Under the pieces are notes generated by a model. The model was not told where the DNA came from. It searched no databases and was given only the letters and a program-made list of their open reading frames with translations. Source: Nitrospirota bacterium (GTDB taxonomy: Bacteria; Nitrospirota; JACRHJ01). From it: a stretch of DNA of 64,000 nt. Made by a program: the position numbers and the translations under genes. The number at the start of each line of letters is the position of its first letter. Position 1 is the first letter of the stretch. Positions 1,317-29,300 of the stretch are shown here, one piece after another. Location of the stretch: the NCBI GenBank assembly GCA_016212105.1, contig JACRHJ010000013.1, positions 46,782-110,781 on the forward strand, written 5' to 3'.

Positions 1317-3002
1317 TTGAGAGTTAACAGCTACTGCCATCAGGAGGCCCTTATCACCACAGTACACGGAAACACAACCGGGCTGAAGGCCGGGGAGATA
1401 AAGAAGCTCGAAAACATTTACCGCCGCAAGGTGCCTGCGCACGAGTTCGTCACCGCCGAACTGGGCCGGTACATGACGCTCATATCGCGCGACATCGGCC
1501 GACAGGTCGCGGTCCTGATAGACAGGGGCGGCGGGATACCGTTCGTCATCGTAGGCGACAAGCAGGAGATAACCATACCGGACCTCGCGGACTACTCGCT
1601 CGGGCCGAAGAAGCTCCGGGGCCTGCGCCTCGTCCACACCCACCTGCGCGAGGAGCCGCTGACCAACGACGACCTGACCGACCTCGCGCTGCTGCGGCTC
1701 GACGCTATGTGCGCGCTCGGCGTACAGCCGGACGGCTTCCCTGGCCGCGTGTACGTCGCGCACCTCCTCCCGCCCAACCCGGAGGAGAAGACCTGGGCGC
1801 TCATCCCGCCGTTCCCGTTCCACCAGTTGGACATTGACCCGGTAAGCTTCACGGAGGCGCTCGAAGACGAGATGCTCCGCGTGCAGGCCGAGTCCTTCGA
1901 CGTAAAGGACACGAGAGAGAAGGCGATACTCATATCCGTCATGCCCAAGAGAAACAAAGCCGTCCTGGCCGAGCAGAAGGAGGCGATGGAGGAGCTGGTC
2001 GAACTCGCACGCTCCGCCGACGTCCTCGTCCTCGAGACCGTCCTCCAGAGGCCGGACAAGCTCTCACCCAAATACCTGATGGGTTCCGGCCGCCTCAAGG
2101 ACGTCATCATCACCGCGCTCCAGAAGGGCGCGACGATGCTGATATTCGACCAGGAGCTTACCCCTTCCCAGATAAACAACATAACCGAGATGACCGAGAT
2201 GAAGGTCATAGACCGCTCTCAGTTGATACTCGACATATTCTCCCGGCGCGCGCACTCCAAAGACGGCAAGGTGCAGGTCGAGCTTGCCCAGCTCAAGTAC
2301 ATGCTGCCGAGGCTTATGGGCAAGGGCACCGCGATGTCGCGCCTGATGGGCGGCATCGGCGGCCGCGGCCCCGGCGAGACCAAGCTCGAGTCCGACAGGA
2401 GGCGCGTGCGCGACAGGATTTCCCAGTTGGAACGCGCGCTCGGCGCGCTCTCCGCCGCCCGCAAGCAGAGGAAGACCCGCCGCGCCGACGCGGGCCTCCC
2501 GATTGTCTCGATAGTCGGGTACACCAACGCGGGCAAGTCCACGCTCCTGAACAAGCTGACCCAGAGCGACACCATCGTCGAGGACAAGCTGTTCGCAACG
2601 CTCGACACCGCGTCCCGGCGGCTTCGCTTCCCGCGCGACCACGACGTGATAATCACGGACACCGTCGGGTTCATACGCGACCTGCCCGCGCCGCTGTTCG
2701 CCGCGTTCCACGCGACCCTTGAGGAGCTTGCCGACGCGGACCTCCTGATGCACGTCGTGGACATATCCAGCCCGCGGTTCGAGGAGCAGATGGCCTCTGT
2801 CGAGAGCATCCTCCAGCAGTTGGGCCTCGACGACAAGGAGCGGATAATAGTGTTCAACAAGGCCGACCTTGTCGACCCGGACATAGCCTTCTCGATAGCG
2901 CGCCGTTACGAGGGCATCGCGCTGTCCGCGCTCGACAGGAAGACCTTCCCGCCGCTGATGCAGGAGCTTGAGGAGAGGCTGTGGGAGCGGGAGGAGGATT
3001 AG
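1317..3002 (+). CDS. hflX: GTPase HflX (long form with ~190-aa N-terminal extension); start codon uncertain
   Basis: HflX N-domain (ILDIFSRRAHSKDGKVQVELAQLKY, GPGETKLE). G1 motif VGYTNAGKSTLLN. Hallmark DTVGFIRDLP. Longest ORF starts at TTG 1317 with no SD; an AGGAGG at 1342-1347 is not followed by a canonical start codon, so the true start is unclear. Confidence 0.9.
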   Translation: MRVNSYCHQEALITTVHGNTTGLKAGEIKKLENIYRRKVPAHEFVTAELGRYMTLISRDIGRQVAVLIDRGGGIPFVIVGDKQEITIPDLADYSLGPKKLRGLRLVHTHLREEPLTNDDLTDLALLRLDAMCALGVQPDGFPGRVYVAHLLPPNPEEKTWALIPPFPFHQLDIDPVSFTEALEDEMLRVQAESFDVKDTREKAILISVMPKRNKAVLAEQKEAMEELVELARSADVLVLETVLQRPDKLSPKYLMGSGRLKDVIITALQKGATMLIFDQELTPSQINNITEMTEMKVIDRSQLILDIFSRRAHSKDGKVQVELAQLKYMLPRLMGKGTAMSRLMGGIGGRGPGETKLESDRRRVRDRISQLERALGALSAARKQRKTRRADAGLPIVSIVGYTNAGKSTLLNKLTQSDTIVEDKLFATLDTASRRLRFPRDHDVIITDTVGFIRDLPAPLFAAFHATLEELADADLLMHVVDISSPRFEEQMASVESILQQLGLDDKERIIVFNKADLVDPDIAFSIARRYEGIALSALDRKTFPPLMQELEERLWEREED

Positions 3003-3041: not shown

Positions 3042-3830
3042 ATGCAAAATCGTTACGTCGGGGACATCGGAGATTTCGGTAAGTTCGGACTACTGAAGAC
3101 ATTGTGCCAGCCAGATGAGGAAGGCAACCAGCTTTCCCTTGGGGTAGTTTGGTATCTTGTTCCTGATGAGAACCACAACAACGACGGCAAGCATGTAGCA
3201 TATCTTGAGCCCAGCATAGGCAATATTGCCAATTTCAGAGAATGCGACCCGGTTCTTTATGATGCTATATCAAATATTGTCCGCAATGGTGAACGAACCA
3301 TCACCAGCATACGTCAGCGAAACCTTTTGCCGCGTGGGACTGCTTTTTATGAGGCGGCTTTGACTTTTAACGATATCCCAAATATAGGCTCATCTGCGCG
3401 CAAAACGAGGATTGCCTATCGTCAGGAATGGTTAAGCGGAGCGCTGGAGACTACAAAATCGTGCAATGTTGTTTTTGCAGACCCTGATAACGGTCTTGAA
3501 GTAGGCATTGAGCGTCATCAAGCGAAAGGCCCTAAATACGTCTATTTTGATGAACTATCGCCTTTTATAAAGAGAGGCCAGAGCTTAATTGTTTATCATC
3601 ATCTGTGTAGAGATGGGGACGCCCGCACACAAATTAAACGCAGGCTTGACCAGCTTAGAGGTATGGCTGCCGACACCGAAGGTATTGCCGCTCTGCAATT
3701 TCGTAGAGGAACCGCGAGAGCGTATTTTATCATACCCGCTATAGAGCACAAAACAACACTTTCAAATAATATCCAGGAATTTGTGAGCGGCAATTGGGGG
3801 CGGCATTTTGTACTGCATGAGTCACTCTAA
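3042..3830 (+). CDS. Hypothetical protein of a low-GC island (262 aa); N-terminal YVGDIGDFGKFGLL glycine-rich motif, VVFADPDNGLE and LIVYHH motifs; no family recognised
   Basis: ATG at 3042 preceded by GGGGGTAG. Local GC ~45% versus ~65% in flanking genes. The frame is clean, and 16 nt separate it from the next gene (co-oriented, operon-like). Confidence 0.6.
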   Translation: MQNRYVGDIGDFGKFGLLKTLCQPDEEGNQLSLGVVWYLVPDENHNNDGKHVAYLEPSIGNIANFRECDPVLYDAISNIVRNGERTITSIRQRNLLPRGTAFYEAALTFNDIPNIGSSARKTRIAYRQEWLSGALETTKSCNVVFADPDNGLEVGIERHQAKGPKYVYFDELSPFIKRGQSLIVYHHLCRDGDARTQIKRRLDQLRGMAADTEGIAALQFRRGTARAYFIIPAIEHKTTLSNNIQEFVSGNWGRHFVLHESL

Positions 3831-3845
3831 TACAGGAGAAAAAGT

Positions 3846-4307
3846 ATGAGCCAAGAGACGGAACCCATATGCAATAGGTGGCAGGAGAAGGTGCTCGATA
3901 AGTTTAATGAAGCAATCGAAGACGCAAAGAGAATTATCACAGACAAGAAGAAGATTTCAGCGTTGCTTGACAAGGCACATGAAATGCTTGACGCCCTCAA
4001 GAGAGTAGCCTCGCCAAAATATAAACAGGCATTGGACGAAGTTCAAACGCTGATGAGGTTAATCCGCACATGGGTTTCAGGTGAATACACCAATGTGCCC
4101 GTGTGGACGATAATAATGGCGGTTGCCGCAATTCTCTACTTGGTGAATCCTTTTGACATAATACCAGATACCATCCCCGTCGTTGGACTTCTGGATGATG
4201 CGTTTGTAATTCGTATGGTTTGCATCGCTATAATGGCCGATTTGGATGCGTTCAGGAAGTGGGAGAATTCCAGAGGCAGCGGTGTAGTAGAACCGCAAAC
4301 AGCGTAG
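3846..4307 (+). CDS. DUF1232 (YkvA-like) small membrane protein
   Basis: Signature NPFDIIPDTIPVVGLLDDAFVIRMVCIAIM, typical of PF06803. N-terminal amphipathic helix region; low GC like its upstream partner. Confidence 0.7.
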   Translation: MSQETEPICNRWQEKVLDKFNEAIEDAKRIITDKKKISALLDKAHEMLDALKRVASPKYKQALDEVQTLMRLIRTWVSGEYTNVPVWTIIMAVAAILYLVNPFDIIPDTIPVVGLLDDAFVIRMVCIAIMADLDAFRKWENSRGSGVVEPQTA

Positions 4308-4386: not shown

Positions 4387-5955
4387 CTACTCCCACTCAA
4401 TAGTAGACGGCGGCTTCGACGAAATATCGTAGCACACCCGGTTCACGCCCTTTATCTCGTTTATTATCCGGTTCGATATCACGCCAAGCAGGTCGTACGG
4501 CAGACGCACCCAGTCGGCGGTCATCCCGTCCTTGGAGTTCACGGCACGCAGCGCGACGACGTTCTCGTATGTCCGCTCGTCGCCCATGACGCCGACGGTA
4601 CGAATGGGCAGCAGCACCGCGAACGACTGCCATATCTCCCTGTACAGACCCGCCTTCTTTATCTCCTCCAGGACGACCGCGTCCGCCTCGCGCAGTATGC
4701 GAAGACGCTCCGCGTTTACCTCGCCGAGTATGCGTATGGCAAGCCCCGGGCCGGGGAACGGCTGACGCCAGATTATCTCGTCCGGCATCCCGAGCTCCTT
4801 GCCAAGCTCCCTGACCTCGTCCTTGAACAGCTCGCGGAGCGGCTCGACAAGCTTCAGCTTCATCTTCTCCGGCAAGCCCCCGACGTTGTGGTGGGACTTT
4901 ATGATGGCAGACGGGCCTTTGAGCGACACGCTCTCGATTACGTCCGGGTAGAGCGTACCCTGCGCGAGGAACTCCGCCCCTTCGACCTTCGCAGCCTCGG
5001 CCTCGAACACCTCTATGAACGTCGTGCCGATAATCTTGCGCTTCTTCTCCGGGTCTTCCACTCCCGCCAGCCTGGACAGGAACGTCTCGGAGGAGTCCAC
5101 GTACTTGAGGTTCAGGCCCATCTGCGCGTAGGTCTCCGGCACCCGCTCCGCCTCGCCCTTCCTCAGCACGCCGTTGTTTACGAATATGCAGGAGAGCTGG
5201 TCGCCGATGGCCCTGTGCACGATGACCGCCGCGACCGAGGAGTCCACGCCTCCGGACAGCGCACATATCACCTTCCGGTCGCCGACCTGCTCTCGTATGA
5301 TGCCGACCGCGTAGTCTATGAAGCTGCCCATGTCCCAGGTCGGTTCGCAGCCGCAGATGCCGAACAGGAAGTTCTTGAGTATCTGGAAGCCCTGCGGCGT
5401 GTGTACGACCTCCGGGTGGAACTGCACGCCGTAGAAACGGCGCGCCTTATCCGCCATCGCCGCGGTCGGGGAGTTGTCCGTGTGCGCGACCGGCCCGAAG
5501 CCCTCCGGCATCCGCTCAATCCTGTCGCCGTGCGACATCCAGACCACTGTGCTGCTCGCGGACTCGCCCTCGCCTATGCCGCCGATCGCCTTGAGGAGGT
5601 CCGACTCGTCGTCGATAAGAAGCTCCGCCCGGCCGTACTCGCGCTTGGCCGCCTTGGCGACCTCCCCGCCAAGCAGGTGGGTCATGAGCTGCATCCCGTA
5701 GCATATGCCGAGCACCGGGACTCCGAGGTCCAGGTGCTCCTTCGAGATGAGCGGCGCGCCGTCGTCGTAGACGCTTGACGGGCCGCCGGAGAGTATCAGG
5801 CCTTTGGGGTTGAACGCACGCACCTTCTCGATACCCGCGTTGTACGGCATTATCTCGCAGTAGACCTTCGCCTCCCTGACCCTGCGCGCGATGAGCTGGG
5901 TGTACTGTGAACCGAAGTCGAGTACGAGTACCCTTTGCTGGTGTATGTCTGACAA
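4387..5955 (-). CDS. guaA: GMP synthase (glutamine-hydrolysing)
   Basis: [28 protein letters not shown]..., GATase and ATP-PPase (SGGVDSS) motifs, C-terminus ...[11 protein letters not shown] start at 5955 with GGAGG 8 nt upstream. Confidence 0.95.
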
Positions 5956-5959
5956 GACG

Positions 5960-6277
5960 TTGACCTCCGGTAATTAATTGTGCGGGCGCGGTTTTTCGCG
6001 CCCTTCCAAACTGTAGGGGCCGACCGTCGTGTCGGCCCTTGCGGTTGTTATTATGTAGGGGCGGGCCTCCGTGCCCGCCCTTGCGGTTTATTTGTTCGTC
6101 ATTCCCGCGAAGGCGGGAATCCAGGAAGTTGTAGGGCGCGACGCCCCCGGCGCGCCGGAATAAGGTGCGGGCGCGGAATCCGCGCCCCTACAATATTCAT
6201 ATACAGGCAGATTCTTCGCTTCGCTCAGAATGACACCAAAGAGGGCGGGCACGGGGACCCGCCCCTACATAAAATCC
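5960..6277. repeat. Intergenic mosaic of short hairpin repeat modules (families F, C, D, A, E, F, J, D)
   Basis: tgtaggggccgaccgtcgtgtcggccc; tgtaggggcgggcctccgtgcccgccc; gtcattcccgcgaaggcgggaatcc; tgtagggcgcgacgcccccggcgcgcc; ttcgcttcgctcagaatgacacc; gggcgggcacggggacccgcccctacataaaa. All recur elsewhere in the window. Confidence 0.85.
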
Positions 6278-7731: not shown

Positions 7732-8460
7732 TTGCTTATGTACGAGGAGCGGACTTACAGGGGCAGGGTGCGCGCGGACGGGCTCGTCGCATTCACGGCC
7801 GTCGTCAAGGAGACCGACCTCTTTATCCTCGCGGACAGCGACCTCTCGGCGCTCGCGCTCGAAGTGGTCATAAGGCACCGGCACCAGCTCGAGACCTACA
7901 TCGCGGGCCACCCGGAGTTCCTGACCTCGCTCGTGCCTGTCGAGCTGAAGCTCGGCGCGCCGGAGTCCGCCGTGCGCATGGCGAGGGCCGCGCTGCCCGC
8001 GAACGTCGGGCCCATGGCGGCGGTCGCTGGCACGTTCTCGGAGCTTGTCGGCGAGGCGCTCCTCGCCCGGTCGTCCCAGGCCATCGTCGAGAACGGCGGG
8101 GACATCTATATCAAATCGACAAGCGAGCGGGTTGTCGCCCTTTACGCCGGCGACTCGCCGCTCTCCGGCAGGGTCGGGCTTAACATCCGCCCTGGCGACA
8201 CGCCGCTGGGGGTATGCACGTCGTCGGGGCGGGTCGGCCATTCGCTCTCGCTCGGCAGGGCGCACGCGGCCTGCATAATATCGAAGTCCACCGCACTCGC
8301 GGACGCGGCCGCAACCGCCGTCGGAAACGCCGTGCAGGGGCCGGGCGACGTCGAGAAGGGCATTGCGCGCGCGCAGGAAATCGAAGGCGTCTTGGGCGCC
8401 GTGGTAATCGCGGGCGACCGGCTCGCCGCCTGGGGGCTGGTCGAATTGGTGAAACTGTAG
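7732..8460 (+). CDS. ApbE-like / UPF0280 family protein
   Basis: GPMAAVAGTFSE..., VENGGDIYIKS, LGVCTSSGRVGHSLSLGRAHAACIISKSTALADAAATA, resembling the ApbE fold; 242 aa. Confidence 0.55.
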   Translation: MLMYEERTYRGRVRADGLVAFTAVVKETDLFILADSDLSALALEVVIRHRHQLETYIAGHPEFLTSLVPVELKLGAPESAVRMARAALPANVGPMAAVAGTFSELVGEALLARSSQAIVENGGDIYIKSTSERVVALYAGDSPLSGRVGLNIRPGDTPLGVCTSSGRVGHSLSLGRAHAACIISKSTALADAAATAVGNAVQGPGDVEKGIARAQEIEGVLGAVVIAGDRLAAWGLVELVKL

Positions 8461-8948
8461 GGTGGGCTACGCCCCACCATTGCATATTGGATTTTGGTTC
8501 ACTGTAGGGCGCGACGCCCCCGGCGCGCCGAGGGTTGTCATTGCGAGGAGTCCCGCGCTTCGCGGGACGACGCGGCAATCTCCACCATAATAATACAAAC
8601 GGAGGAGGTTGCTTCGCTCCGCTCGCAAAGACAGATAATAACATGAAGGGCCGACACACGGGTCGGCACCTACATAAAAGCATGGCGGGCAATGCACGCC
8701 CTACAACTAATGTTGCAGGGGGCCGTACCAGGCGAAGCGCGTGTCAGCCCAACCTGTCACCCCCGTGAAAACGGGGGTCCATTTTAACCTTGCGCGGGAA
8801 AATGGATTCCCGCTTTCGCGGGAATGACAACCTTGAAAGGTCTGTCATGGCGGGCAATGCCCGCCCTGCAACTTCCTGGACCCCGTGTCAAGCACGGGGC
8901 GACAAGCATAATCCGTCATTCCCGCGAAGGCGGGAATCCAGGAATTTT
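8461..8948. repeat. Intergenic mosaic of hairpin modules (G, E, C, G-like, B, A, G-like, H, A)
   Basis: tgtagggtgggctacgccccacc; tgtagggcgcgacgcccccggcgcgccg; gggccgacacacgggtcggcacctacataaaag; gtcacccccgtgaaaacgggggtcc; ggattcccgctttcgcgggaatgac; ccccgtgtcaagcacgggg; gtcattcccgcgaaggcgggaatcc. Confidence 0.85.
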
Positions 8949-8979
8949 CACGAACACGAAACACGAACACGAAACACGG
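8949..8979 (+). promoter_or_regulatory. CA-rich tandem element (cgaacacgaaaca x2) occupying the SD position upstream of the FmdE-like gene; a second copy lies upstream of the GT2 gene at 58786..58806
   Basis: cacgaacacgaaacacgaacacgaaacacgg ends 12 nt before ATG 8991 with no SD in between. A 21-nt near-identical copy sits 13 nt before the ATG of the minus-strand gene 57888..58772. Confidence 0.4.
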
Positions 8980-8990
8980 AATTTAGCTAC

Positions 8991-9464
8991 ATGTCTTTCG
9001 ACTTCACAGCCCTCTACGAGTTCCACGGCCACCGCTGCCCGATGTCCACGATGGGCGCGCGTCTCGGTCTTGCCGCGATGGCCGCGCTCGGCGTGACGAA
9101 GGCCGACCAGTTCAAGGTCGAGGGGCTGTTCCATACGAAGAACTGCGCGCTGGACGGCATACAGTTCACCACCGGCTGTACGCTCGGGAACGGGAACCTC
9201 GCATATGCGGAGGAGGGACGCGCGGCGTTCACACTGAATCGGCGGGACGGCCGTGGCGGCGTAGTCGTGACGGTGTCCGGCGCCGCGCTCGAAAGGCTCT
9301 CCGGGTTCAAGGAGTTCAAGGCCCGGCTCATGGAGGAGCGCGATATAAGCGGCCTCGCCCGCGCGATGGAGATAGACGCGGAGATAAACAGGGGTTTCGA
9401 CGCCCTGGTCGACTGGGTACAGTCGGCGGACGAGGGCGGGTTGGTAACAGTGACAGCAGCTTGA
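8991..9464 (+). CDS. FmdE/FwdE-family domain protein (formylmethanofuran dehydrogenase subunit E-like)
   Basis: MSFDFTALYEFHGHRCPMSTMGARLGLAAM..., the HGHxCP motif of PF02663. The upstream part of the longest ORF (8790..) covers repeat modules and is rejected. Confidence 0.75.
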   Translation: MSFDFTALYEFHGHRCPMSTMGARLGLAAMAALGVTKADQFKVEGLFHTKNCALDGIQFTTGCTLGNGNLAYAEEGRAAFTLNRRDGRGGVVVTVSGAALERLSGFKEFKARLMEERDISGLARAMEIDAEINRGFDALVDWVQSADEGGLVTVTAA

Positions 9465-9476
9465 GGAGGTAGCCGC

Positions 9477-10409
9477 ATGGCCGCCAAAATATATGACGGG
9501 GTACTGGAGCTTATCGGCAAGACGCCGCTTGTGCGGCTTGTCCGGATGACCGGCGAGAAGGACGCGGCGGTCTATGCAAAGGTCGAGGGCGCGAACCCCG
9601 GCGGGAGCGTCAAGGACAGGATAGCGCTCTCGATGGTGGAGGAGGCCGAGAAGTCCGGCCACCTCAAGCCCGGCGGGCTGATAATAGAGCCGACGAGCGG
9701 GAATACCGGCATCGGCCTGGGCATAGTCGCGGCCATCAAGGGCTACAAGCTGATACTGACCATGCCGGAGACGATGTCCGTCGAGCGCAGGACGCTCCTT
9801 GCGGCGTACGGGGCGGAGCTTGTGCTGACCCCCGGCCCGGAGGGGATGCGGGGCGCGGTGGTAAAGGCGGAGGAGATAGCGGCCGCCAACCCCGGCAGCT
9901 TCATACCCCAGCAGTTCAACAACCCGGCGAACCCGGAGGTCCACAGGAAGACGACGGCGAGGGAGATACTCTCCGCGCTCGGCCCCCGGATAGACACGTT
10001 CGTCGCGGGCGTCGGCACCGGCGGCACCATCACCGGTGTAGGCGAGGTGCTCCGCTCCAAGAACAAGGACATAAAAATCGTCGCGGTCGAGCCGTCGGCG
10101 TCGCCCGTGCTGTCCGGCGGCACGCCCGGCCCGCACAAGATACAGGGCATAGGCGCGGGCTTTGTCCCGACGGTCCTGAACACGCAGATATACGACGAGA
10201 TAATACAGGTGACGAACGAGGACGCGGCGGATACAGCGAGGCGTCTCGCCGCCCAGGAGGGCATACTCGCCGGCATATCCTCCGGCGCGGCTCTTTTCGC
10301 CGCCCTCGCGGTGGCAAAGAGGCTCGGCAAGGGCAAGAACGTCGTCGTCATACTCCCGGACAGGGGCGAGCGCTACCTCAGCACGGGGCTGTTCGGGGGC
10401 GGGGCGTAG
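9477..10409 (+). CDS. cysK: Cysteine synthase (O-acetylserine sulfhydrylase)
   Basis: GKTPLVRL..., [10 protein letters not shown] (PLP lysine), [20 protein letters not shown]; 310 aa. Confidence 0.9.
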
Positions 10410-10410
10410 A

Positions 10411-10735
10411 TGTAACTTCCTGGGCTCCGTGTCAAAGCCTGCCCTGAGCCCCGGCTTTATGCATACCGGGGTAAACTCCGCCGAATGGGCACGGGGAGAC
10501 ACCAAAAGCCTGTCATTCCCGCGAAAGCGGGAATCCAGCGACGTTGCTTTTATCGTACCATTGAGAAAGGCAGGGCCGACACACGGGTCGGCCCCTACAT
10601 AAAAACAGAACCTTCGGCGCGCCGGGGGCGTCGCGCCCTACGAAATACCGCAGTGGGGGCCACACAGAAGTTCTTGGGCCGCCTTCTTACAAGAAGGCGG
10701 GACTTGTATCGTTAAAGCTGGCGTTTCTCATGCGC
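10411..10735. repeat. Intergenic mosaic (H with nested N insertion, A, C, E, K)
   Basis: ccgtgtcaaagcctgccctgagccccggctttatgcataccggggtaaactccgccgaatgggcacgggg; gtcattcccgcgaaagcgggaatcc; gggccgacacacgggtcggcccctacataaaaac; ggcgcgccgggggcgtcgcgccctac; agttcttgggccgccttcttacaagaaggcgggactt. Confidence 0.85.
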
Positions 10736-10772
10736 CGTTGACCACAACCTGTTCTGACAGGGGGAGAGTGAT

Positions 10773-11237
10773 ATGCAGTTATCGACCAAGGGGCGGTATG
10801 CGGTCAGGGCTATGTTCGACCTGGCGTTTTATTCGCAGGGGGAGCCTGTCCCGCTGTCGAGGATATCGGAGCGGGAGGAGATATCGCTCCATTACCTTGA
10901 GCAGCTCTTCAACAAGCTCCGTAAGGGCGGCGTGGTCGAGTCCGTGCGCGGCCCGTCCGGCGGGTTCAAGCTTGCGAGGAAGCCCTCCGAGATCTCCGTG
11001 GAGGAGATAATCAGCATCGTCGAGGGTCCGATAGTCCCGGTCTCCTGCCTGGAGCACAAGGACAAGGACAGGGTCTGCCACAGGGCGGAGAAATGCGTCA
11101 CGTTCATCCTCTGGAAGCGGCTGGGCAAGAACATAACCGAGTTCCTGTCCTCGGTCACGCTCCAGGACCTGGTGGACGAGGCGAGGGAGCTTCTCGACTC
11201 CGGGAAGGTCACGCACGACTATATGTTCTACATATAA
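10773..11237 (+). CDS. Rrf2-family transcriptional regulator (IscR/CymR-like, Cys-containing)
   Basis: MQLSTKGRYAVRAMFDLA... wHTH, SGGFKL, Cys residues C92/C101/C107; adjacent to cysK. Confidence 0.85.
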   Translation: MQLSTKGRYAVRAMFDLAFYSQGEPVPLSRISEREEISLHYLEQLFNKLRKGGVVESVRGPSGGFKLARKPSEISVEEIISIVEGPIVPVSCLEHKDKDRVCHRAEKCVTFILWKRLGKNITEFLSSVTLQDLVDEARELLDSGKVTHDYMFYI

Positions 11238-15156: not shown

Positions 15157-17271
15157 ATGTCATCCGGCAGGGAAATATCAGCGGAAGGCGTCATCGGCAG
15201 GAACAGGTTCCTCATCGCCGTGTCCGCGGCATACTTGGCCGCGGCCGTCAGCCCGCTGTGGGGGCTCGCATGGGGCACGATGGCCGCGGCGGTCTGGTCC
15301 GGCGTCGTACTCGTCCTGCTCCTTGCCGGGAGCTGGCGGATGCTGCGCGCGGGCGGCCCGCAGTCGAGGACGGACTTCGAGTTCATCGTCCCGCTCATCC
15401 TCGCGGTGAACCTCTTCGCGTCGCTGCTCGGCCCGGACAGGGCATGGCTCCAGCCGATGGCATATCTTGTTGTCGCCCTCTGCGCCCTCTACTTCTCCAT
15501 AGGCTTCAACCTCTCGGTCGCGGGCCTGATATTCGGTCTCGAATTTCTGAACGCCGTCGTCACGCCTGACGGCCTCGACCTCGAGAAGTCCATAAGCCTC
15601 CTCGTCTTCGGCGCGTACCTCGTGGCCGCCGCGCTGGTCCTCGGCAGGCTGTTCCAGTCCGAGTACAGGAAGCGGGAGCGGGCTGTCAAGGCCGTGAAAC
15701 GGCTGCAGGAGGGCGCGCTTTCGCTCGACACCGAAGACACGCCCGACCCGACGGTCGGACACATCTCCCCCGTGGGGAAGATGGGCAGGCTCCTCGACCA
15801 GGCGGCGACGCTCGACCGCGCACTCGAAGACCTCCTCGAGACCGCCCGCTCCGCGATACCCTCCGAGAACGCGCTCCTGTTCATGCCGGAGAGCGGGGGG
15901 GACGGCCTGTTCCTGAGGCTTTACCTGGGCGGCGCGGGCATAATCGAGGACTGCACCATACCCGCGGGCCAAGGGCTTGTCGGCTGGGTGGCCAAGGAGA
16001 AAAAGCCTCTGGTCACGCACGGCAAGGCGAGGGGCATTGGATACGTAAAGAACGAGGAGTCAGTGCGCTCGCTGGTAGCCGCGCCGATAATGAACGGCGG
16101 CTACCTGGAGGGTGTCATAGTGCTCGACTCCTCCCAGCCGGACGCGTTCACGGACGTCGAGAAGGACGTGCTGGAGCGGTTCGCGGGAATCGCGCTGTAC
16201 CTGCTCCAGAACGCGAGGCAGTACCAGCAGGCGGACCACTCAGCCAGGAACTTCGGAGCGCTCCACAAGATAAGCTCCGAGCTGTCTTCCACGCTCGACC
16301 TGGGCGACATACTGGAGCGGCTCGCTACTCTCTCAAAGGACATCCTGCCCTACGACAACCTCACCATCGCCCTGACCGAGGCGGGCGGCAAGGTGCGGTT
16401 CAGGACGATAAAGGGCTACGGGCCGATGCAGCCCCCTGCCGACGCGGTGGCCGTCGAGGGTAGCCTGCTCGGCTGGATCGTCGAGAACCGCCAGCCGCTC
16501 AGCTTCTCGGACCTCGACCAGCGCACCGACAAGCTGCCTATATTCCCCGTCAAGGACCTCCAGGCCTCATGCCGGTCTTTCCTCGGCATACCGCTGGTCA
16601 GCCACGACGAGGTGCTGGGGCTGTTCACGCTGTCGCTCCGGGAGCCGGACGCGATAACCGGATACCAGCAGCACGTGCTGTCCATCATAGCGAACCAGGT
16701 CGCGGTCAACATAGCCAACGCGAAGCTGCACTACATGATGCAGCAGATGGCGACGACCGACGGGCTGACCGGGCTCATCAACCACAGGCATTTCCAGGAG
16801 AAGGCGGACGCGGAGTTCGCGCGCGTGGCGCGGTACCCCGGCCCGCTGTCCATACTCCTGCTGGACATCGACCACTTCAAAAAGGTGAACGACACTTACG
16901 GACACCCCGTCGGGGACGCGGTATTGAAGCGCGTATCGAAGATACTCAAGGACACGGTCCGGGACTCGGACATCGCGGCCCGTTACGGAGGCGAGGAGTT
17001 CGTCGCGCTCCTCACGAACACGGACGAGAAGGGCGCGATGCAGATGGCGGAGCGCATCCGCGTGACCATCGAGAAGAGCCGGTTCCTTCTGGACGGCAAG
17101 AACATACCCATCACGGTAAGCGTCGGCTGCGCGAGCCACCCGGTGGACGCGGGCGACAAGGCCGGGCTTATCGCGAAGGCCGACCAGGCACTCTACTGGT
17201 CCAAGGGCCACGGCAGGAACCGCTGCACGCCGTCGCGCGAGGTGGGCGATGCCGCCCCGGAGAAACATTAG
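15157..17271 (+). CDS. Membrane-anchored diguanylate cyclase with two GAF domains (GGDEF, GGEEF active-site motif)
   Basis: N-terminal multi-TM region, two GAF domains, then the GGDEF domain: LTGLINHRHFQEKADAEFARVARY..LSILLLDIDHFKKVNDTYGH..GDAVL...RYGGEEFVALL. Start set at ATG 15157 (GAGG RBS), after the K hairpin repeat, rather than the upstream TTG 15073. Confidence 0.9.
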   Translation: MSSGREISAEGVIGRNRFLIAVSAAYLAAAVSPLWGLAWGTMAAAVWSGVVLVLLLAGSWRMLRAGGPQSRTDFEFIVPLILAVNLFASLLGPDRAWLQPMAYLVVALCALYFSIGFNLSVAGLIFGLEFLNAVVTPDGLDLEKSISLLVFGAYLVAAALVLGRLFQSEYRKRERAVKAVKRLQEGALSLDTEDTPDPTVGHISPVGKMGRLLDQAATLDRALEDLLETARSAIPSENALLFMPESGGDGLFLRLYLGGAGIIEDCTIPAGQGLVGWVAKEKKPLVTHGKARGIGYVKNEESVRSLVAAPIMNGGYLEGVIVLDSSQPDAFTDVEKDVLERFAGIALYLLQNARQYQQADHSARNFGALHKISSELSSTLDLGDILERLATLSKDILPYDNLTIALTEAGGKVRFRTIKGYGPMQPPADAVAVEGSLLGWIVENRQPLSFSDLDQRTDKLPIFPVKDLQASCRSFLGIPLVSHDEVLGLFTLSLREPDAITGYQQHVLSIIANQVAVNIANAKLHYMMQQMATTDGLTGLINHRHFQEKADAEFARVARYPGPLSILLLDIDHFKKVNDTYGHPVGDAVLKRVSKILKDTVRDSDIAARYGGEEFVALLTNTDEKGAMQMAERIRVTIEKSRFLLDGKNIPITVSVGCASHPVDAGDKAGLIAKADQALYWSKGHGRNRCTPSREVGDAAPEKH

Positions 17272-17372
17272 GACACTTCCACGTCCCGCCTTTTTGTAAA
17301 AAGGCGGCCCAAAAACTTTCGGCAGATTGCATTGTTCCATGCCGCCTGAACTGCTGGTACTGCAAAATTCTA

Positions 17373-23943: not shown

Positions 23944-24068
23944 GGTGCGACGCCCCCTCAAGCCGATTGTCATTCCCGCGAAAGCGGGAATCCATTGTAA
24001 TGGCCGAGTCAAATTGGACCCCCGTTTTCACGGGGGTGACAGGCAGGGCCGACACACGGGTCGGCCCC
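23944..24068. repeat. Intergenic mosaic (E-like, A, B, C)
   Basis: tgtagggtgcgacgccccc; gtcattcccgcgaaagcgggaatcc; ggacccccgttttcacgggggtgac; gggccgacacacgggtcggcccctacatgaaag. Confidence 0.85.
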
Positions 24069-24071
24069 TAC

Positions 24072-24710
24072 ATGAAAGCAAGAAGATACACCTTGCCCGA
24101 AGACGCCTACAACATAGAATCCGGCGAGGACAAGGCCTGGCGCGAGCTGGCCGCCGCCGGCCCGGAGTCGGTCGTGAAGCGGAGCCTCGCTGCCTACGAC
24201 GCCGCGTCCGGCAGCTACACCCTGACTGTCTTCGGCGAGGAGTACCTCGTTTCACCCGCCACGCGGACCATATCCAACCTCTCAAACCCGTCACGCGCTG
24301 ACGAAATCCTGCTACGCCTCGCTGTACCCGTCTACCTCGTGAACGCCCGCGCGGTTGAGCCGTCCGGCGTGCTGGTCAAGGAGTTCACCGGCGGCGAGAT
24401 ATTCCTCAAGGGCACACACGTCCTGCCGACGGACGAGATAGCGAAGAAGTACGGAAGCGACGGTGATTATTTCCTGAGGGCGGGGATGGCGGAGCTTGGC
24501 GGAGCGCCGGTGAGGCTGGGTGATGCGGCAATCGGGTTCAGGCCGTTCCCGCGCGTCTCGATGACGATGATACTCTGGCTCATGGACGAGGAGTTTCCCG
24601 CGCGGGCGAGCCTTCTCTTCGACGGAAACGCGGACAGGCACATGCCTATTGACGTGGTCTGGGCGGCCGCCCTGCTGGCGTGTGAGAGGATGCTGAAGAT
24701 CCTGAATTAA
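24072..24710 (+). CDS. Hypothetical protein (212 aa)
   Basis: ATG 24072 immediately after the repeat block. Host-like GC; no family recognised by eye. Confidence 0.55.
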   Translation: MKARRYTLPEDAYNIESGEDKAWRELAAAGPESVVKRSLAAYDAASGSYTLTVFGEEYLVSPATRTISNLSNPSRADEILLRLAVPVYLVNARAVEPSGVLVKEFTGGEIFLKGTHVLPTDEIAKKYGSDGDYFLRAGMAELGGAPVRLGDAAIGFRPFPRVSMTMILWLMDEEFPARASLLFDGNADRHMPIDVVWAAALLACERMLKILN

Positions 24711-24716
24711 TATCAG

Positions 24717-25322
24717 TTAAGATATAACCGTTGATTTAAATGCACTTTGAATGTCTTCGATAAACTTCTTGAAACTATTATCTCGTTTTGATGCGAGTTT
24801 TACATCCATTTCTTTTGCTAAATCTCCTCCGTATTCGGCCCCGCCTCTACGTGGCCTTATCCCGCCAGCAATAAAGGCATCCCTCAACATCTTTTTGTAA
24901 ACATCCTTCTCGCATTTTCCAAGTTGCGGGGTATCGGGGGTAGGTATGTTGCCGACCGTCGCCAATGCTTTGCAATCCAATAAATACCAGCACTCGATAT
25001 GTGGCTCTGGTAAAGCCAGGACAAGCGGTGTCAATCCTAATGCATCGCCGGTCTCTTTTTCTACAAGTTTTCGTTTTCCGTTATAGCCAGAACAATTGGC
25101 ATCAACCGAAACCACGACAACATCGTATTTTATAGCACGGCCTATTTTCAACCCGCTCAAATACCGATAGTAGGTCCCCAACGATGCACCTTTTTGATCG
25201 TTAAGGACAACTATTTCGATAGCAATTTTCTTATCGGCGGCGACTCGTTCGATTAAACCGCAGATTATTTCTTTCTGCGCGATGTCCTCCAGAAACACGG
25301 CGACTCGAAGAATTCTACCCAC
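24717..25322 (-). CDS. DUF4276-family protein (TOPRIM/OLD-like, AbiLii-like) in a low-GC island
   Basis: GRILRVAVFLEDIAQKE (N-terminal acidic strand), DVVVVSVDAN (DxD-like), HIECWYLLD (E-x-W motif). Preferred start is GTG 25322 with GGAG 6 nt upstream, overlapping the upstream stop by 8 nt; TTG 25364 and ATG 25358 are alternatives. GC ~45%. Confidence 0.65.
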   Translation of the reverse strand: MGRILRVAVFLEDIAQKEIICGLIERVAADKKIAIEIVVLNDQKGASLGTYYRYLSGLKIGRAIKYDVVVVSVDANCSGYNGKRKLVEKETGDALGLTPLVLALPEPHIECWYLLDCKALATVGNIPTPDTPQLGKCEKDVYKKMLRDAFIAGGIRPRRGGAEYGGDLAKEMDVKLASKRDNSFKKFIEDIQSAFKSTVIS

Positions 25323-26619
25323 CGTAAACTCCGGTCGCAAAGTTCTCTTCGAGCGCATCGTCAATCTCTTGTTTCATGAATAATTCACCAAATGTGCTGA
25401 ACGGCATGATTTGCGTTCTCTGGTTTTCCCAAAGGCTTACAAATAGCTGCTCCGATTCGAAACAACGCGCAAATATGGGGGAATGCGTTGTTATGATTAC
25501 CTGCTTCTGCATCGTCTCAACATATTCAATAAACCAGTCGGCAAGCAGTTGAATCCTGCGGGGATGTACGCCGTTTTCCGGTTCTTCGTAGCCAACTACA
25601 TTCGCAGGTTTCAGGGCGGATAGTATGCTGGCGATACCAATAATCCGGAGAGTACCCTCCGAGACTACCCTTGCGGTCCTTTCCCCGTCTTCTTCCGTAA
25701 CGTGAAGCAGGAGCTGCCCATCTTTAGTACGCTCGATGAGGATATCCTTAACCCTCGGCAATACCTGGGCAAGTGATTTCACCAATGAAGCGAACTGCTT
25801 GGGATTTTCTGCTTCGAGAGTATTTAGAAACGCCGTCAGATTTTCTCCTCGGCTGCCAATGTTTTTCACTTCTGAAATTGGATTTGCCGCCCGCATGATT
25901 TCACGGGGTTCAAAATAATAGAACGCCCATTTTTCCATCTCCCGCTTTGCAAGGCTCATATGCTGATAATGTGGTAAATACAAAGGCGTTGATAGAATTG
26001 TATGGTCTATACCGACATCAAAATATCTGGGATGCGCCTGACCCTCCATGCGTAGCGAAAGTTTACCATTTGATTTTCCAACAAACGGGTTCCGGCTTTT
26101 TAAGGTTTCAGTGAAATCTTTTCGTAATGCTTCCAGCTTTTCATCGAATACACCTATGTTACCGGACTTCAAGTCTACCCTCAGTACAAGTCTGTATCTA
26201 AGTTGCCTGCAAAGTGCAATCCTTTCCTGCGGTGTTGAATCAAATTGAACGTCACCGTGCAGTTCATGCTTAATGTCATCTTTGCTATCGATGTACGGCT
26301 TGCGAATAGCCTTTATTTCTTCTTTAAGTTCTTTTTCCGTATCTTCATCAATCTCAAGGTCGACCTCGAAAGTTATGTCTCTGCTTCCGTATTCATCGGA
26401 GGGGGTCCAGCCGTAAATACACTCTAGTGGTAATCCCCTATGAGAGGAAAAAGCCTTAGTCAGGGTGGGGTTGGTAACAGTGCTTGAGAGCAGGGCCAAA
26501 GCGTCGAGCAGGTTACTTTTGCCCGTGGCGTTCGGCCCCATGATAACGGCAAGCGGGCCGATAGTCAGTTCGAAATCCTTGAACGACTTGTAACCGTCAA
26601 TATAAATGCGTCTTATCAT
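25315..26619 (-). CDS. AAA_21/AAA_15-type ABC ATPase (OLD/AbiLi-like)
   Basis: MIRRIYIDGYKSFKDFELTIGPLAVIMGPNATGKSNLLDAL (Walker A); VVGYEEPENGVHP (Walker B/D-loop); H-loop ITTHSP. Start set at ATG 26619 by the family N-terminus (ORF track gives 26676). GC ~45%. Confidence 0.8.
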   Translation of the reverse strand: MIRRIYIDGYKSFKDFELTIGPLAVIMGPNATGKSNLLDALALLSSTVTNPTLTKAFSSHRGLPLECIYGWTPSDEYGSRDITFEVDLEIDEDTEKELKEEIKAIRKPYIDSKDDIKHELHGDVQFDSTPQERIALCRQLRYRLVLRVDLKSGNIGVFDEKLEALRKDFTETLKSRNPFVGKSNGKLSLRMEGQAHPRYFDVGIDHTILSTPLYLPHYQHMSLAKREMEKWAFYYFEPREIMRAANPISEVKNIGSRGENLTAFLNTLEAENPKQFASLVKSLAQVLPRVKDILIERTKDGQLLLHVTEEDGERTARVVSEGTLRIIGIASILSALKPANVVGYEEPENGVHPRRIQLLADWFIEYVETMQKQVIITTHSPIFARCFESEQLFVSLWENQRTQIMPFSTFGELFMKQEIDDALEENFATGVYGG

Positions 26620-26701
26620 ATTTGCATGCCTTTTCCATCGGTAAACCTGAGAGAATGCCGTCGCCAAGTACGACATGCTATCGGAAACCTTCCGCCACCC
26701 C

Positions 26702-27079
26702 CTACTTCTTCACAAGCGAGCTGACCAGCTTGAGCAGCTCGGCCGTCTGTATGGGCTTCGAGAGGTATGCGTTCGCGCCGAGCGCGAGGCCCTTCTTCCT
26801 GTCCTCTTCCGCGCCCTCGGTCGTGATTATTATTATGGGTATCTCCCTGTACTGGTCGTTGCCCCTGATGAGCGAGACGAGCTTCAGGCCGTCCATGATG
26901 GGCATGTTGATGTCTGTAAGGATAAGGTCGAACTTCGCCGTCGAGAGCTTCTTGAGCGCGTCTATGCCGTCCGAGGCCTCGATTATCTTCGAGCCGTGCA
27001 CCCTCTTCAGGGCGAACGATATGAGCTGCCTCATGGTCGGTGAATCCTCAACTACAAGAAAATGAATATCGGGCATCAC
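26702..27079 (-). CDS. cheY: CheY-like single-domain response regulator
   Basis: HFLVVEDS...DLILTDINMP..DG...K motifs; 125 aa. Confidence 0.85.
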   Translation of the reverse strand: MMPDIHFLVVEDSPTMRQLISFALKRVHGSKIIEASDGIDALKKLSTAKFDLILTDINMPIMDGLKLVSLIRGNDQYREIPIIIITTEGAEEDRKKGLALGANAYLSKPIQTAELLKLVSSLVKK

Positions 27080-29104: not shown

Positions 29105-29300
29105 CGGCCCTCGTTGATTCTGGTTTATGTAGCTGCCCGATTCATCGGGCGTTTTTAATAGCGCCCACAACTGAGCGGGTTACAACTGTTTGTCACCCCC
29201 GTGCAAACGGGGGTCCATTTTGACGTTATTCATGAAAATGGATTCCCGCTTTCGCGGGAATGACGATATCGAGAGTTGGCGCGGGAACTATCCCTGCCAA
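29105..29300. repeat. Intergenic mosaic (O, B, A)
   Basis: ctgcccgattcatcgggcg; gtcacccccgtgcaaacgggggtcc; ggattcccgctttcgcgggaatgac. Confidence 0.8.

Follow-up and report, generated by a model that had tools for sequence, protein, structure and literature searches.

The window analyzed here, 64,000 nucleotides (nt) of contig JACRHJ010000013.1 (positions 46,782 to 110,781 of the forward strand) in the Nitrospirota bacterium assembly GCA_016212105.1, contains a cassette of low guanine-plus-cytosine (GC) content that is probably a horizontally acquired unit of the HEC-01 type. In this cassette, the gene for an ATP-binding cassette (ABC) ATPase is followed by an overlapping gene for a TOPRIM-like DUF4276 protein of 201 amino acids (aa), the partner, and the two products would act as an ATPase-gated nuclease defense. 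As judged from sequence comparisons, the locus is a divergent, solo, and deep-branching member of the HEC-01/DUF4276 branch of the ABC-ATPase-plus-TOPRIM systems.

The GC content of the pair was 45.5% compared to 63.2% in the 4.8 kb on either side, and it remained between 44% and 48% in the 500-nt windows from position 25001 to 26500. A drop to about 45% had been noted in the original prediction, which had been made from the DNA letters and a list of open reading frames (ORFs). Two minus-strand ORFs of this list, 25315..26676 and 24717..25364, fill positions 24717 to 26676. Their starts had been suspected to be wrong and were indeed placed too far upstream: by the NCBI record and the alignments of homologs, the ATPase starts at ATG 26619 and the partner at GTG 25322, and the starts of the homologs align with both positions. 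An identical 434-aa ATPase (P0008) that begins at ATG 26619 is annotated in the Nitrospirota metagenome-assembled genome (MAG) GCA_016222885.1, contig JACRQC010000002.1, and the record of this MAG also annotates the 201-aa second gene with the GTG 25322 start. Both genes are intact and contain all family-invariant catalytic residues. The start of the partner gene overlaps the stop of the ATPase gene in GTGGGTAG, positions 25315-25322, as had been proposed, and the motifs listed before for the ATPase (GPNATGKSN, EEPENGVHP, and ITTHSP) and for the partner (DVVVVSVDAN and HIECWYL) could all be read in the sequence. The features of the cassette are listed in Table 1; leaders of homologous cassettes had lengths of 68 to 185 nt.

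Table 1. Features of the cassette, given in positions of the window, with residue numbers of the encoded proteins
Feature	Position	Strand	Remarks
Low-GC cassette, 1,991 nt	24711..26701		Flanked by the stop codons of two host genes in convergent orientation
Cassette borders	24710; 26702-26704		Stop of the DUF3786 gene ends at 24710; stop of the CheY-like receiver gene at 26702-26704; from sequence
ABC ATPase gene, 434 aa	25315..26619	minus	AAA_15/AAA_21; best PADLOC match HEC-01A
Partner gene, 201 aa	24717..25322	minus	DUF4276-like, TOPRIM-like putative nuclease; GTG start
Overlap, 8 nt, GTGGGTAG	25315..25322	minus	GTG start of the partner over TAG stop of the ATPase
Leader, 82 nt	26620..26701	minus	Stop codon of the CheY-like gene to start codon of the ATPase gene; from sequence
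ATPase, Walker A GPNATGKSN (G28-N36)	26512..26538	minus	G28, P29, N30, G33, K34, S35, and N36 invariant in 27 homologs
ATPase, ABC signature-like SEGTLR (S320-R325)	25645..25662	minus	Invariant in 27 homologs; conserved to 95% or more in 73 genomes
ATPase, Walker B and D-loop VVGYEEPENGVHP (V341-P353)	25561..25599	minus	Contains EEPENGVHP
ATPase, H-loop ITTHSP (I376-P381)	25477..25494	minus	T378, H379, S380, and P381 invariant in 27 homologs
Partner, FLED (F10-D13)	25284..25295	minus	Just past strand beta-1; position of the TOPRIM glutamate
Partner, DVVVVSVDAN (D67-N76)	25095..25124	minus	D74-x-N76 past strand beta-3; position equivalent to DxD
Partner, PEPHIECWY (P105-Y113)	24984..25010	minus	Past strand beta-4; overlaps HIECWYL

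The ATPase and its partner

The ATPase matched the Pfam families AAA_21 (3.5e-27) and, over its full length, AAA_15 (1.3e-23). It is an ABC ATPase of the SMC/Rad50/PtuA-like type. Within VVGYEEPENGVHP, residues E345, E346, P347, E348, N349, G350, H352, and P353 were invariant in the 27 homologs. The family is large, with members of about 422 to 425 aa, and the closest relatives were 41 to 49% identical to the ATPase of the window. In the structural comparison, the model of the ATPase resembled the heads of Smc, Rad50, PtuA, AriA, GajA, and OLD; the ATPase has a short, beta-rich domain as its insert and no long coiled coil. By sequence, its best PDB match was the Thermus OLD protein 6p74 (3e-16). 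Among 135 PADLOC matches of the ATPase, HEC-01A (PDLC04184) was the best with 1.3e-54, connecting ORF residues 20-410 to profile positions 1-398 of 464; PDC-M07A, AriA, AbiLi (6.9e-28), and mad3 ranked below.

The partner could be aligned with profile positions 2 to 191 of the 192 positions of DUF4276 (PF14103), and its sequence suggests a divergent branch of this family. The original prediction had made its case depend on a DUF4276 or TOPRIM-like match of the second protein, and such a match exists at the family level: six of eight members of the partner family matched DUF4276 (best value 4.5e-10), and seven of the eight matched the HEC-01B models (best value 1e-8). In a collection of 5.8 billion proteins, the nearest relatives of the partner were 31 to 36% identical. 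An exhaustive profile search (E <= 1e-3) yielded 955 cluster representatives at 50% identity, nearly all of them stand-alone proteins of about 200 aa.

In its conserved residues, the partner appears to follow the TOPRIM pattern, in which a glutamate is combined with a DxD-like motif, and family-specific residues are added. In 149 cluster representatives, E12 and D13 of FLED were 99% conserved, as was D74; the preceding strands comprise residues 5-10 and 68-72, respectively, in the AlphaFold2 model, and D67 was not conserved in the wider set. In the motif PEPHIECWY, conservation was 100% for E110 and W112, 99% for P107, 97% for P105, and 89% for H108, and D116 and K143 were 99% conserved.

Two cysteines of the partner, C77 (positions 25092-25094), directly past D74-x-N76, and C137 (24912-24914), were conserved in 87 to 89% of the 149 representatives and could form a disulfide or an additional metal site. 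Residue 138 (24909-24911), which adjoins C137, is polymorphic: GKCEKD was found in the window and in Logan contigs, and GKCKKD in the NCBI MAG record (L001), which is an E138K exchange.

The AlphaFold2 model of the partner (pLDDT of 90.5, pTM of 0.89) has four strand-helix repeats and then a C-terminal half made of helices. Two structures gave its longest matches: PH0156, which has also been reported as the best match of the PARIS nuclease AriB, and an OLD nuclease in its TOPRIM region; 2p62 has likewise been reported as the best structural match of a lactococcal AriB homolog (PMC11381338). A Foldseek comparison of the partner with the PDB gave nothing at E <= 1e-3, and a PDB sequence search with the partner profile gave no match even at E <= 10. 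An hhalign comparison of a 155-sequence partner profile with full-length P2 Old and with its C-terminal part returned a probability of 0.1%; with only one sequence as the template, this value carries no information. DUF4276 has been counted among the TOPRIM superfamily and called Mad4-like (PMC12065111), and HEC-01B has been reported to share the metal site of OLD (bioRxiv 10.1101/2024.01.29.577857). Evidence from the model for a TOPRIM fold of the partner is supportive but not exclusive. The split, OLD-like layout that had been proposed, an ABC-type AAA_15/21 ATPase with a TOPRIM-like DUF4276 partner, was upheld.

A precise insertion beside a chemosensory cluster

On one side, the pair adjoins a chemosensory cluster that encodes CheW, a methyl-accepting chemotaxis protein (MCP), a histidine kinase, CheR, CheB, a GAF protein, and a CheY-like receiver; a location at the tail of such a cluster had been predicted correctly. 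On the other side is a DUF3786 gene, which is convergent with the cluster. The stop codon of this gene is separated by 6 nt from that of the partner gene, and the stop codon of the receiver gene by 82 nt from the start of the ATPase gene. A metagenome contig (L097/L098) showed an identical gene order on both sides, including a DUF3786 ortholog with 61% identity, and only 42 nt between the DUF3786 stop and the receiver stop compared to 1,991 nt in the window. The GC content of this contig stayed at about 60% without a dip. The arrangement with the insert was common to three independent sequencing runs. Thus, the pair is a precise, foreign insertion outside the chemosensory operon: because of the empty site in L097/L098 and the GC contrast, the cassette is foreign to the genome, as had been suggested before, and does not belong to the chemosensory system.

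This empty site bears on the possibility that the pair serves the adjacent chemosensory cluster as a functional output or as a regulatory part. The pair is on the same strand, it begins at a distance of 82 nt behind the last CheY-like gene, and no terminator was predicted in between. The cluster of L097/L098 is intact without the pair, however, and homologous pairs elsewhere are located away from che genes. A chemosensory function has next to no probability and was rejected on account of the empty site; read-through transcription from the che cluster may occur but would be incidental.

Flanking repeats or att sites above chance level were not found at the edges of the cassette, and no recombinase, repeats, or tRNA gene was found near it; the window as a whole does not contain any tRNA gene and so offers no tRNA integration site. 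The sole edge-to-edge repeat was a direct pair of 19 nt with 84% identity (16 of 19 matches), TAACCGTTGATTTAAATGC at 24725-24743 and TAACCGTCAATATAAATGC at 26591-26609. These copies are located almost exactly at the ends of the cassette, in the 3' end of the partner gene and in the part encoding the conserved N terminus of the ATPase. Since both copies are inside coding sequence, this similarity is probably due to chance. Promoter and terminator sites did not exceed the background of shuffled sequences, also not in the leader 26620..26701. A search for the empty site with the identical CheY-like protein returned only contigs with the insert, and a metagenome scan with the DUF3786 protein of the window gave no matches; the empty site was reached via DUF3786 homologs instead.

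Conservation of the pair

Species-representative genomes were scanned with the ATPase, which yielded at least 531 matching stretches; the counts of loci given here refer to the 80 best. These loci span Thermodesulfobacteriota, Verrucomicrobiota, Chloroflexota, Acidobacteriota, Planctomycetota, Latescibacterota, Omnitrophota, Cyanobacteria, and others, and include the isolates Syntrophus buswellii DM-2 and Desulfobulbus elongatus DSM 2908. A full-length and strongly matching partner followed directly after the ATPase on the same strand in 73 of the 80 loci. The partner was frameshifted in L016 and cut by the contig end in L013; it was undetectable after the ATPase in L033, L051, and L083, and in L073 an HmaB-like methylase gene came directly after the ATPase. 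In L022, from a deltaproteobacterial MAG (7989-9893, 10094-11020), the ATPase continues as one ORF of 634 aa, the last 230 aa of which weakly resemble DUF4276 (E = 0.0035). This may be either a natural fusion of ATPase and nuclease or a frameshift of the assembly. The next gene in L022 encodes a Ser/Thr kinase that resembles mad6 and PD-T4-6 (1e-36).

The overlap offered by the start and stop codons in the 73 loci was 8 nt in 56, 11 nt in 11, and 1 to 4 nt in 3 cases. An overlap of 8 nt suggests translational coupling, and because GTGGGTAG of the window represents the norm of the family, it argues for such a coupling here. Pairwise identities of the ATPases and of the partners were correlated (r = 0.91 for the 73 loci), and none of 999 permutations reached this value. 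The pair travels and diverges together as a unit across many phyla. Among 69 relatives, 64 had a pair with less GC than its flanks (median difference, 5.9 points), which is typical of mobile accessory genes; a host-like composition across relatives, which the original prediction had named as a point that would speak against it, was not observed. In IMG/VR, one match of the ATPase was found (32% identical).

These results also allow an evaluation of a native housekeeping function in DNA repair or recombination, with a RecF/Rad50/SbcCD-like ATPase and a nuclease. Such a role is very improbable, since a syntenic relative does without the pair, the GC content is foreign to the genome, the distribution is patchy with varying neighborhoods, and the ATPase has the short beta-rich insert in place of a long coiled coil.

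Relationship to known defense systems

HEC-01 ("Hma-embedded candidate 01") was defined as an ABC ATPase paired with a TOPRIM protein inside Hma (helicase-methylase-ATPase) systems (bioRxiv 10.1101/2024.01.29.577857). The gene order of the window agrees with it: the ATPase gene comes first and is directly followed on its strand by the partner gene, with an 8-nt overlap in the window. In contrast to HEC-01, the pair of the window is not embedded in Hma, its neighbors being the CheY-like and DUF3786 genes, and its partner belongs to a deep branch with a nearest homolog of 36% identity. Embedding in Hma reflects how HEC-01 was discovered and is not a functional requirement.

Relatives of both kinds were found. 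In the Latescibacterota locus L082 (4364-16700), genes for HmaA (5.8e-160), the ATPase-DUF4276 pair, and HmaB (7e-118) follow in this order. Two more ABC ATPase paralogs, one PDC-M07A-like and one HEC-01A-like, are located after HmaB in L082, so that ATPase modules are stacked in one island. An HmaB-like gene was present in the 8-kb flanks of 8 of the 80 loci and a type-III-like methylase gene in 4 more. In the Syntrophus/Smithella lineage, the pair is positioned between a HigB/M78 module and genes for a methylase and a ResIII helicase. The pairs of other relatives stand alone among housekeeping genes, as in the window.

The pair may serve methylation-based defense, such as Hma, type III restriction-modification (R-M), or MADS-like systems, as an accessory or guard module and be active only together with such a system, for instance as a PARIS-like sensor of anti-restriction proteins of phages; in that case, the copy in the window would be an orphan that does little or nothing by itself. 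The position between HmaA and HmaB in L082, the methylase genes within the 8-kb flanks of 12 of the 80 loci, and the P0108/L014 lineage, in which genes for a methylase and a ResIII helicase are directly next to the pair and the pair is in front, agree with this explanation. So do mad3 and mad4 of MADS, which are needed for full defense yet accessory to the definition of the system, and the precedent of PARIS, which is triggered by an anti-restriction protein. On the other hand, the pair was solo among housekeeping genes in the window and in three of the four relatives with neighborhoods inspected gene by gene, and the 8-kb flanks of 68 of the 80 loci lacked both kinds of methylase that were searched for. 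The solo copies keep all catalytic residues, which argues for selection as autonomous units, and a HEC-01 representative was protective when expressed in Escherichia coli B. A strict dependence on such systems is, on balance, rather unlikely.

Four other systems that combine an ABC ATPase with a TOPRIM-like protein were compared, and membership in AbiL, MADS, and PARIS was rejected on the basis of HMM comparisons. The label AbiL, which the original prediction had used, had to be given up. Lactococcus AbiLi/AbiLii has the same two-gene architecture of an ABC ATPase plus a TOPRIM-like protein, but the AbiLi match of the ATPase was about 27 orders of magnitude weaker than that of HEC-01A, AbiLii was not matched by the partner of the window (E <= 0.1) or by the eight family members (E <= 0.01), and relatives are located between HmaA and HmaB. 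Mad3-Mad4 of the MADS system from Pseudomonas aeruginosa shares an AAA_15/21 ABC ATPase and a DUF4276 partner with the cassette; Mad4 has been equated with DUF4276 (PMC12065111), and the authors of the PARIS work class MADS3-4 among the ATPase-plus-TOPRIM systems. Deletion of mad3 or mad4 lowers defense by MADS. The NCBIfam model MAD3 reached only 136.9 bits compared to an equivalog cutoff of 420, however, and the mad4 models matched neither the partner of the window nor the eight family members. Genes for mad1, mad2, or mad5 to mad8 were not found near the pair, and no kinase or methylase gene flanks it in the window.

PARIS, with the ABC ATPase AriA and the DUF4435 TOPRIM tRNase AriB, is likewise a split pair. 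The partner of the window had no DUF4435 or AriB match, and one of the eight family members touched AriB with 8.9e-4. The partner is a DUF4276 protein of 201 aa compared to the DUF4435 protein AriB of about 35 kDa, and the insert of the ATPase is unlike that of AriA. The OLD family, including P2 Old in class 1, the Burkholderia and Thermus proteins in class 2, and GajA of Gabija, follows the same logic of ABC ATPase and TOPRIM, but both domains are fused in one OLD chain, whereas they are encoded by separate genes here, with the apparent fusion in L022 as an exception, and there was no match to TOPRIM_OLD (PF20469).

Possible function of the cassette

A mechanism was modeled on PARIS, P2 Old, and Gabija. 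In PARIS, a hexamer of AriA sequesters AriB until a phage protein triggers the release of this TOPRIM tRNase (PMC11464382; PMC13064643), and in P2 Old, the opening of a tetramer activates the tRNase (bioRxiv 10.64898/2026.07.10.737580). By analogy, an oligomer of the ATPase in the window may keep the DUF4276 nuclease inactive and sense the infection. A phage-derived trigger, together with ATP binding or hydrolysis, would free or open the nuclease, which would cut nucleic acid and stop growth, leading to abortive infection. The leading guess for the target would be tRNA, as for AriB and P2 Old, and DNA would also be possible, as for GajA. Co-inheritance of both genes, the putative translational coupling, and the intact active sites fit this model of a gated nuclease. 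The original prediction had regarded the mechanism of such pairs as uncharacterized. This no longer applies to the wider group, since PARIS and P2 Old are ATPase-gated TOPRIM tRNases (PMC11464382; bioRxiv 10.64898/2026.07.10.737580) and protection by one HEC-01 representative has been reported (PMC12881386).

Evaluation of the cassette as HEC-01-type nuclease defense needs to consider several results that weigh against it. The partner had DUF4276 as its only Pfam match, with E = 2e-4 and 21.9 to 22.2 bits, which is below the gathering threshold of 30.2, and HEC-01B matched it only with E = 0.0024 and 15.9 bits. Because both scores are weak, standard tools may miss the system. The nearest homologs were distant, with about 47 to 49% identity for the ATPase and 36% for the partner. 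Position 76 of the partner was N in 85% and D in 15% of the 149 representatives, so that the motif is not a strict DxD. A close homolog of either protein was not found in the phage and plasmid collections. The cassette of the window is a solo copy without any defense gene beside it. Finally, the first HEC-01 representative that was tested gave no defense in E. coli (bioRxiv 10.1101/2024.01.29.577857). With another representative, taken from a cold-seep MAG, E. coli B was protected from one or more of the phages T4, T5, and T7 (PMC12881386).

Alternatively, the cassette may be a selfish addiction module of the toxin-antitoxin kind, in which the nuclease serves as the toxin and the ATPase as the antitoxin, and which spreads and is maintained by postsegregational killing and has no role in phage defense. 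A compact unit of two overlapping genes that moved horizontally into unrelated sites would agree with this, as would the pair of one relative that adjoins a HigB-type toxin-antitoxin module, and PARIS formally behaves as a type II toxin-antitoxin system (PMC13064643). Addiction modules thrive on plasmids and in phages, however, and these hardly contain the family; the pair also recurs inside dedicated defense loci. Toxin-antitoxin behavior and defense are, moreover, not mutually exclusive. A purely selfish module is unlikely and should be placed behind an accessory role in methylation-based defense.

A more specific version of the gated-nuclease defense may be put forward tentatively, with doubts prevailing. 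The pair could be a minimal PARIS-like guard, in which the ATPase senses anti-restriction or other early phage proteins that disarm methylation-based defenses and then releases the 200-aa TOPRIM nuclease, which would cleave tRNA. The solo copies would be autonomous members of the deep branch that are largely missed by current models. If true, this would explain why the pair is frequently embedded in Hma and R-M loci.

Other features of the window

An ISL3-family transposase gene is located at about 16176-17369 (19251-20444 in L001), about 7 kb from the cassette and past the genes for an acetyl-CoA synthetase and a sensor kinase. It is not adjacent to the cassette, and no link to the insertion was seen. 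A palindromic 27-mer, ATGGATTCCCGCTTTCGCGGGAATGAC, occurs in the window in 11 copies with up to two mismatches (none expected), which start at positions 6098, 8802, 8915, 10512, 11358, 20180, 23969, 29238, 48773, 51137, and 58933. It looks like an intergenic repeat family similar to repetitive extragenic palindromic (REP) sequences or miniature inverted-repeat transposable elements (MITEs), and spurious ORFs that span it are translated to "MDSRFRGND." The copies closest to the cassette, 23969-23995 and 29238-29264, are away from its edges.

Another low-GC island (45 to 48% GC) is located at 3042-4307 between hflX (1317-3002) and guaA (4387-5955, minus strand). It contains two plus-strand ORFs, one of 262 aa without a Pfam or PADLOC match and one of 153 aa with DUF1232 (5e-13), and looks like another small foreign cassette.

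Implications

A new principle does not emerge, because immunity by an ABC ATPase together with a TOPRIM protein is already an established theme. The cassette itself is a clean and datable case of a defense-type two-gene unit that was placed exactly between two convergent stop codons, and its empty site survives in a related genome. Beyond this locus, the analysis delimits a large and deep HEC-01/DUF4276 branch that is barely detected by the Pfam and PADLOC models. In this branch, the 8-nt translational overlap is conserved and the residues to be mutated can be clearly named, and its cultured strains would permit tests in the native hosts.

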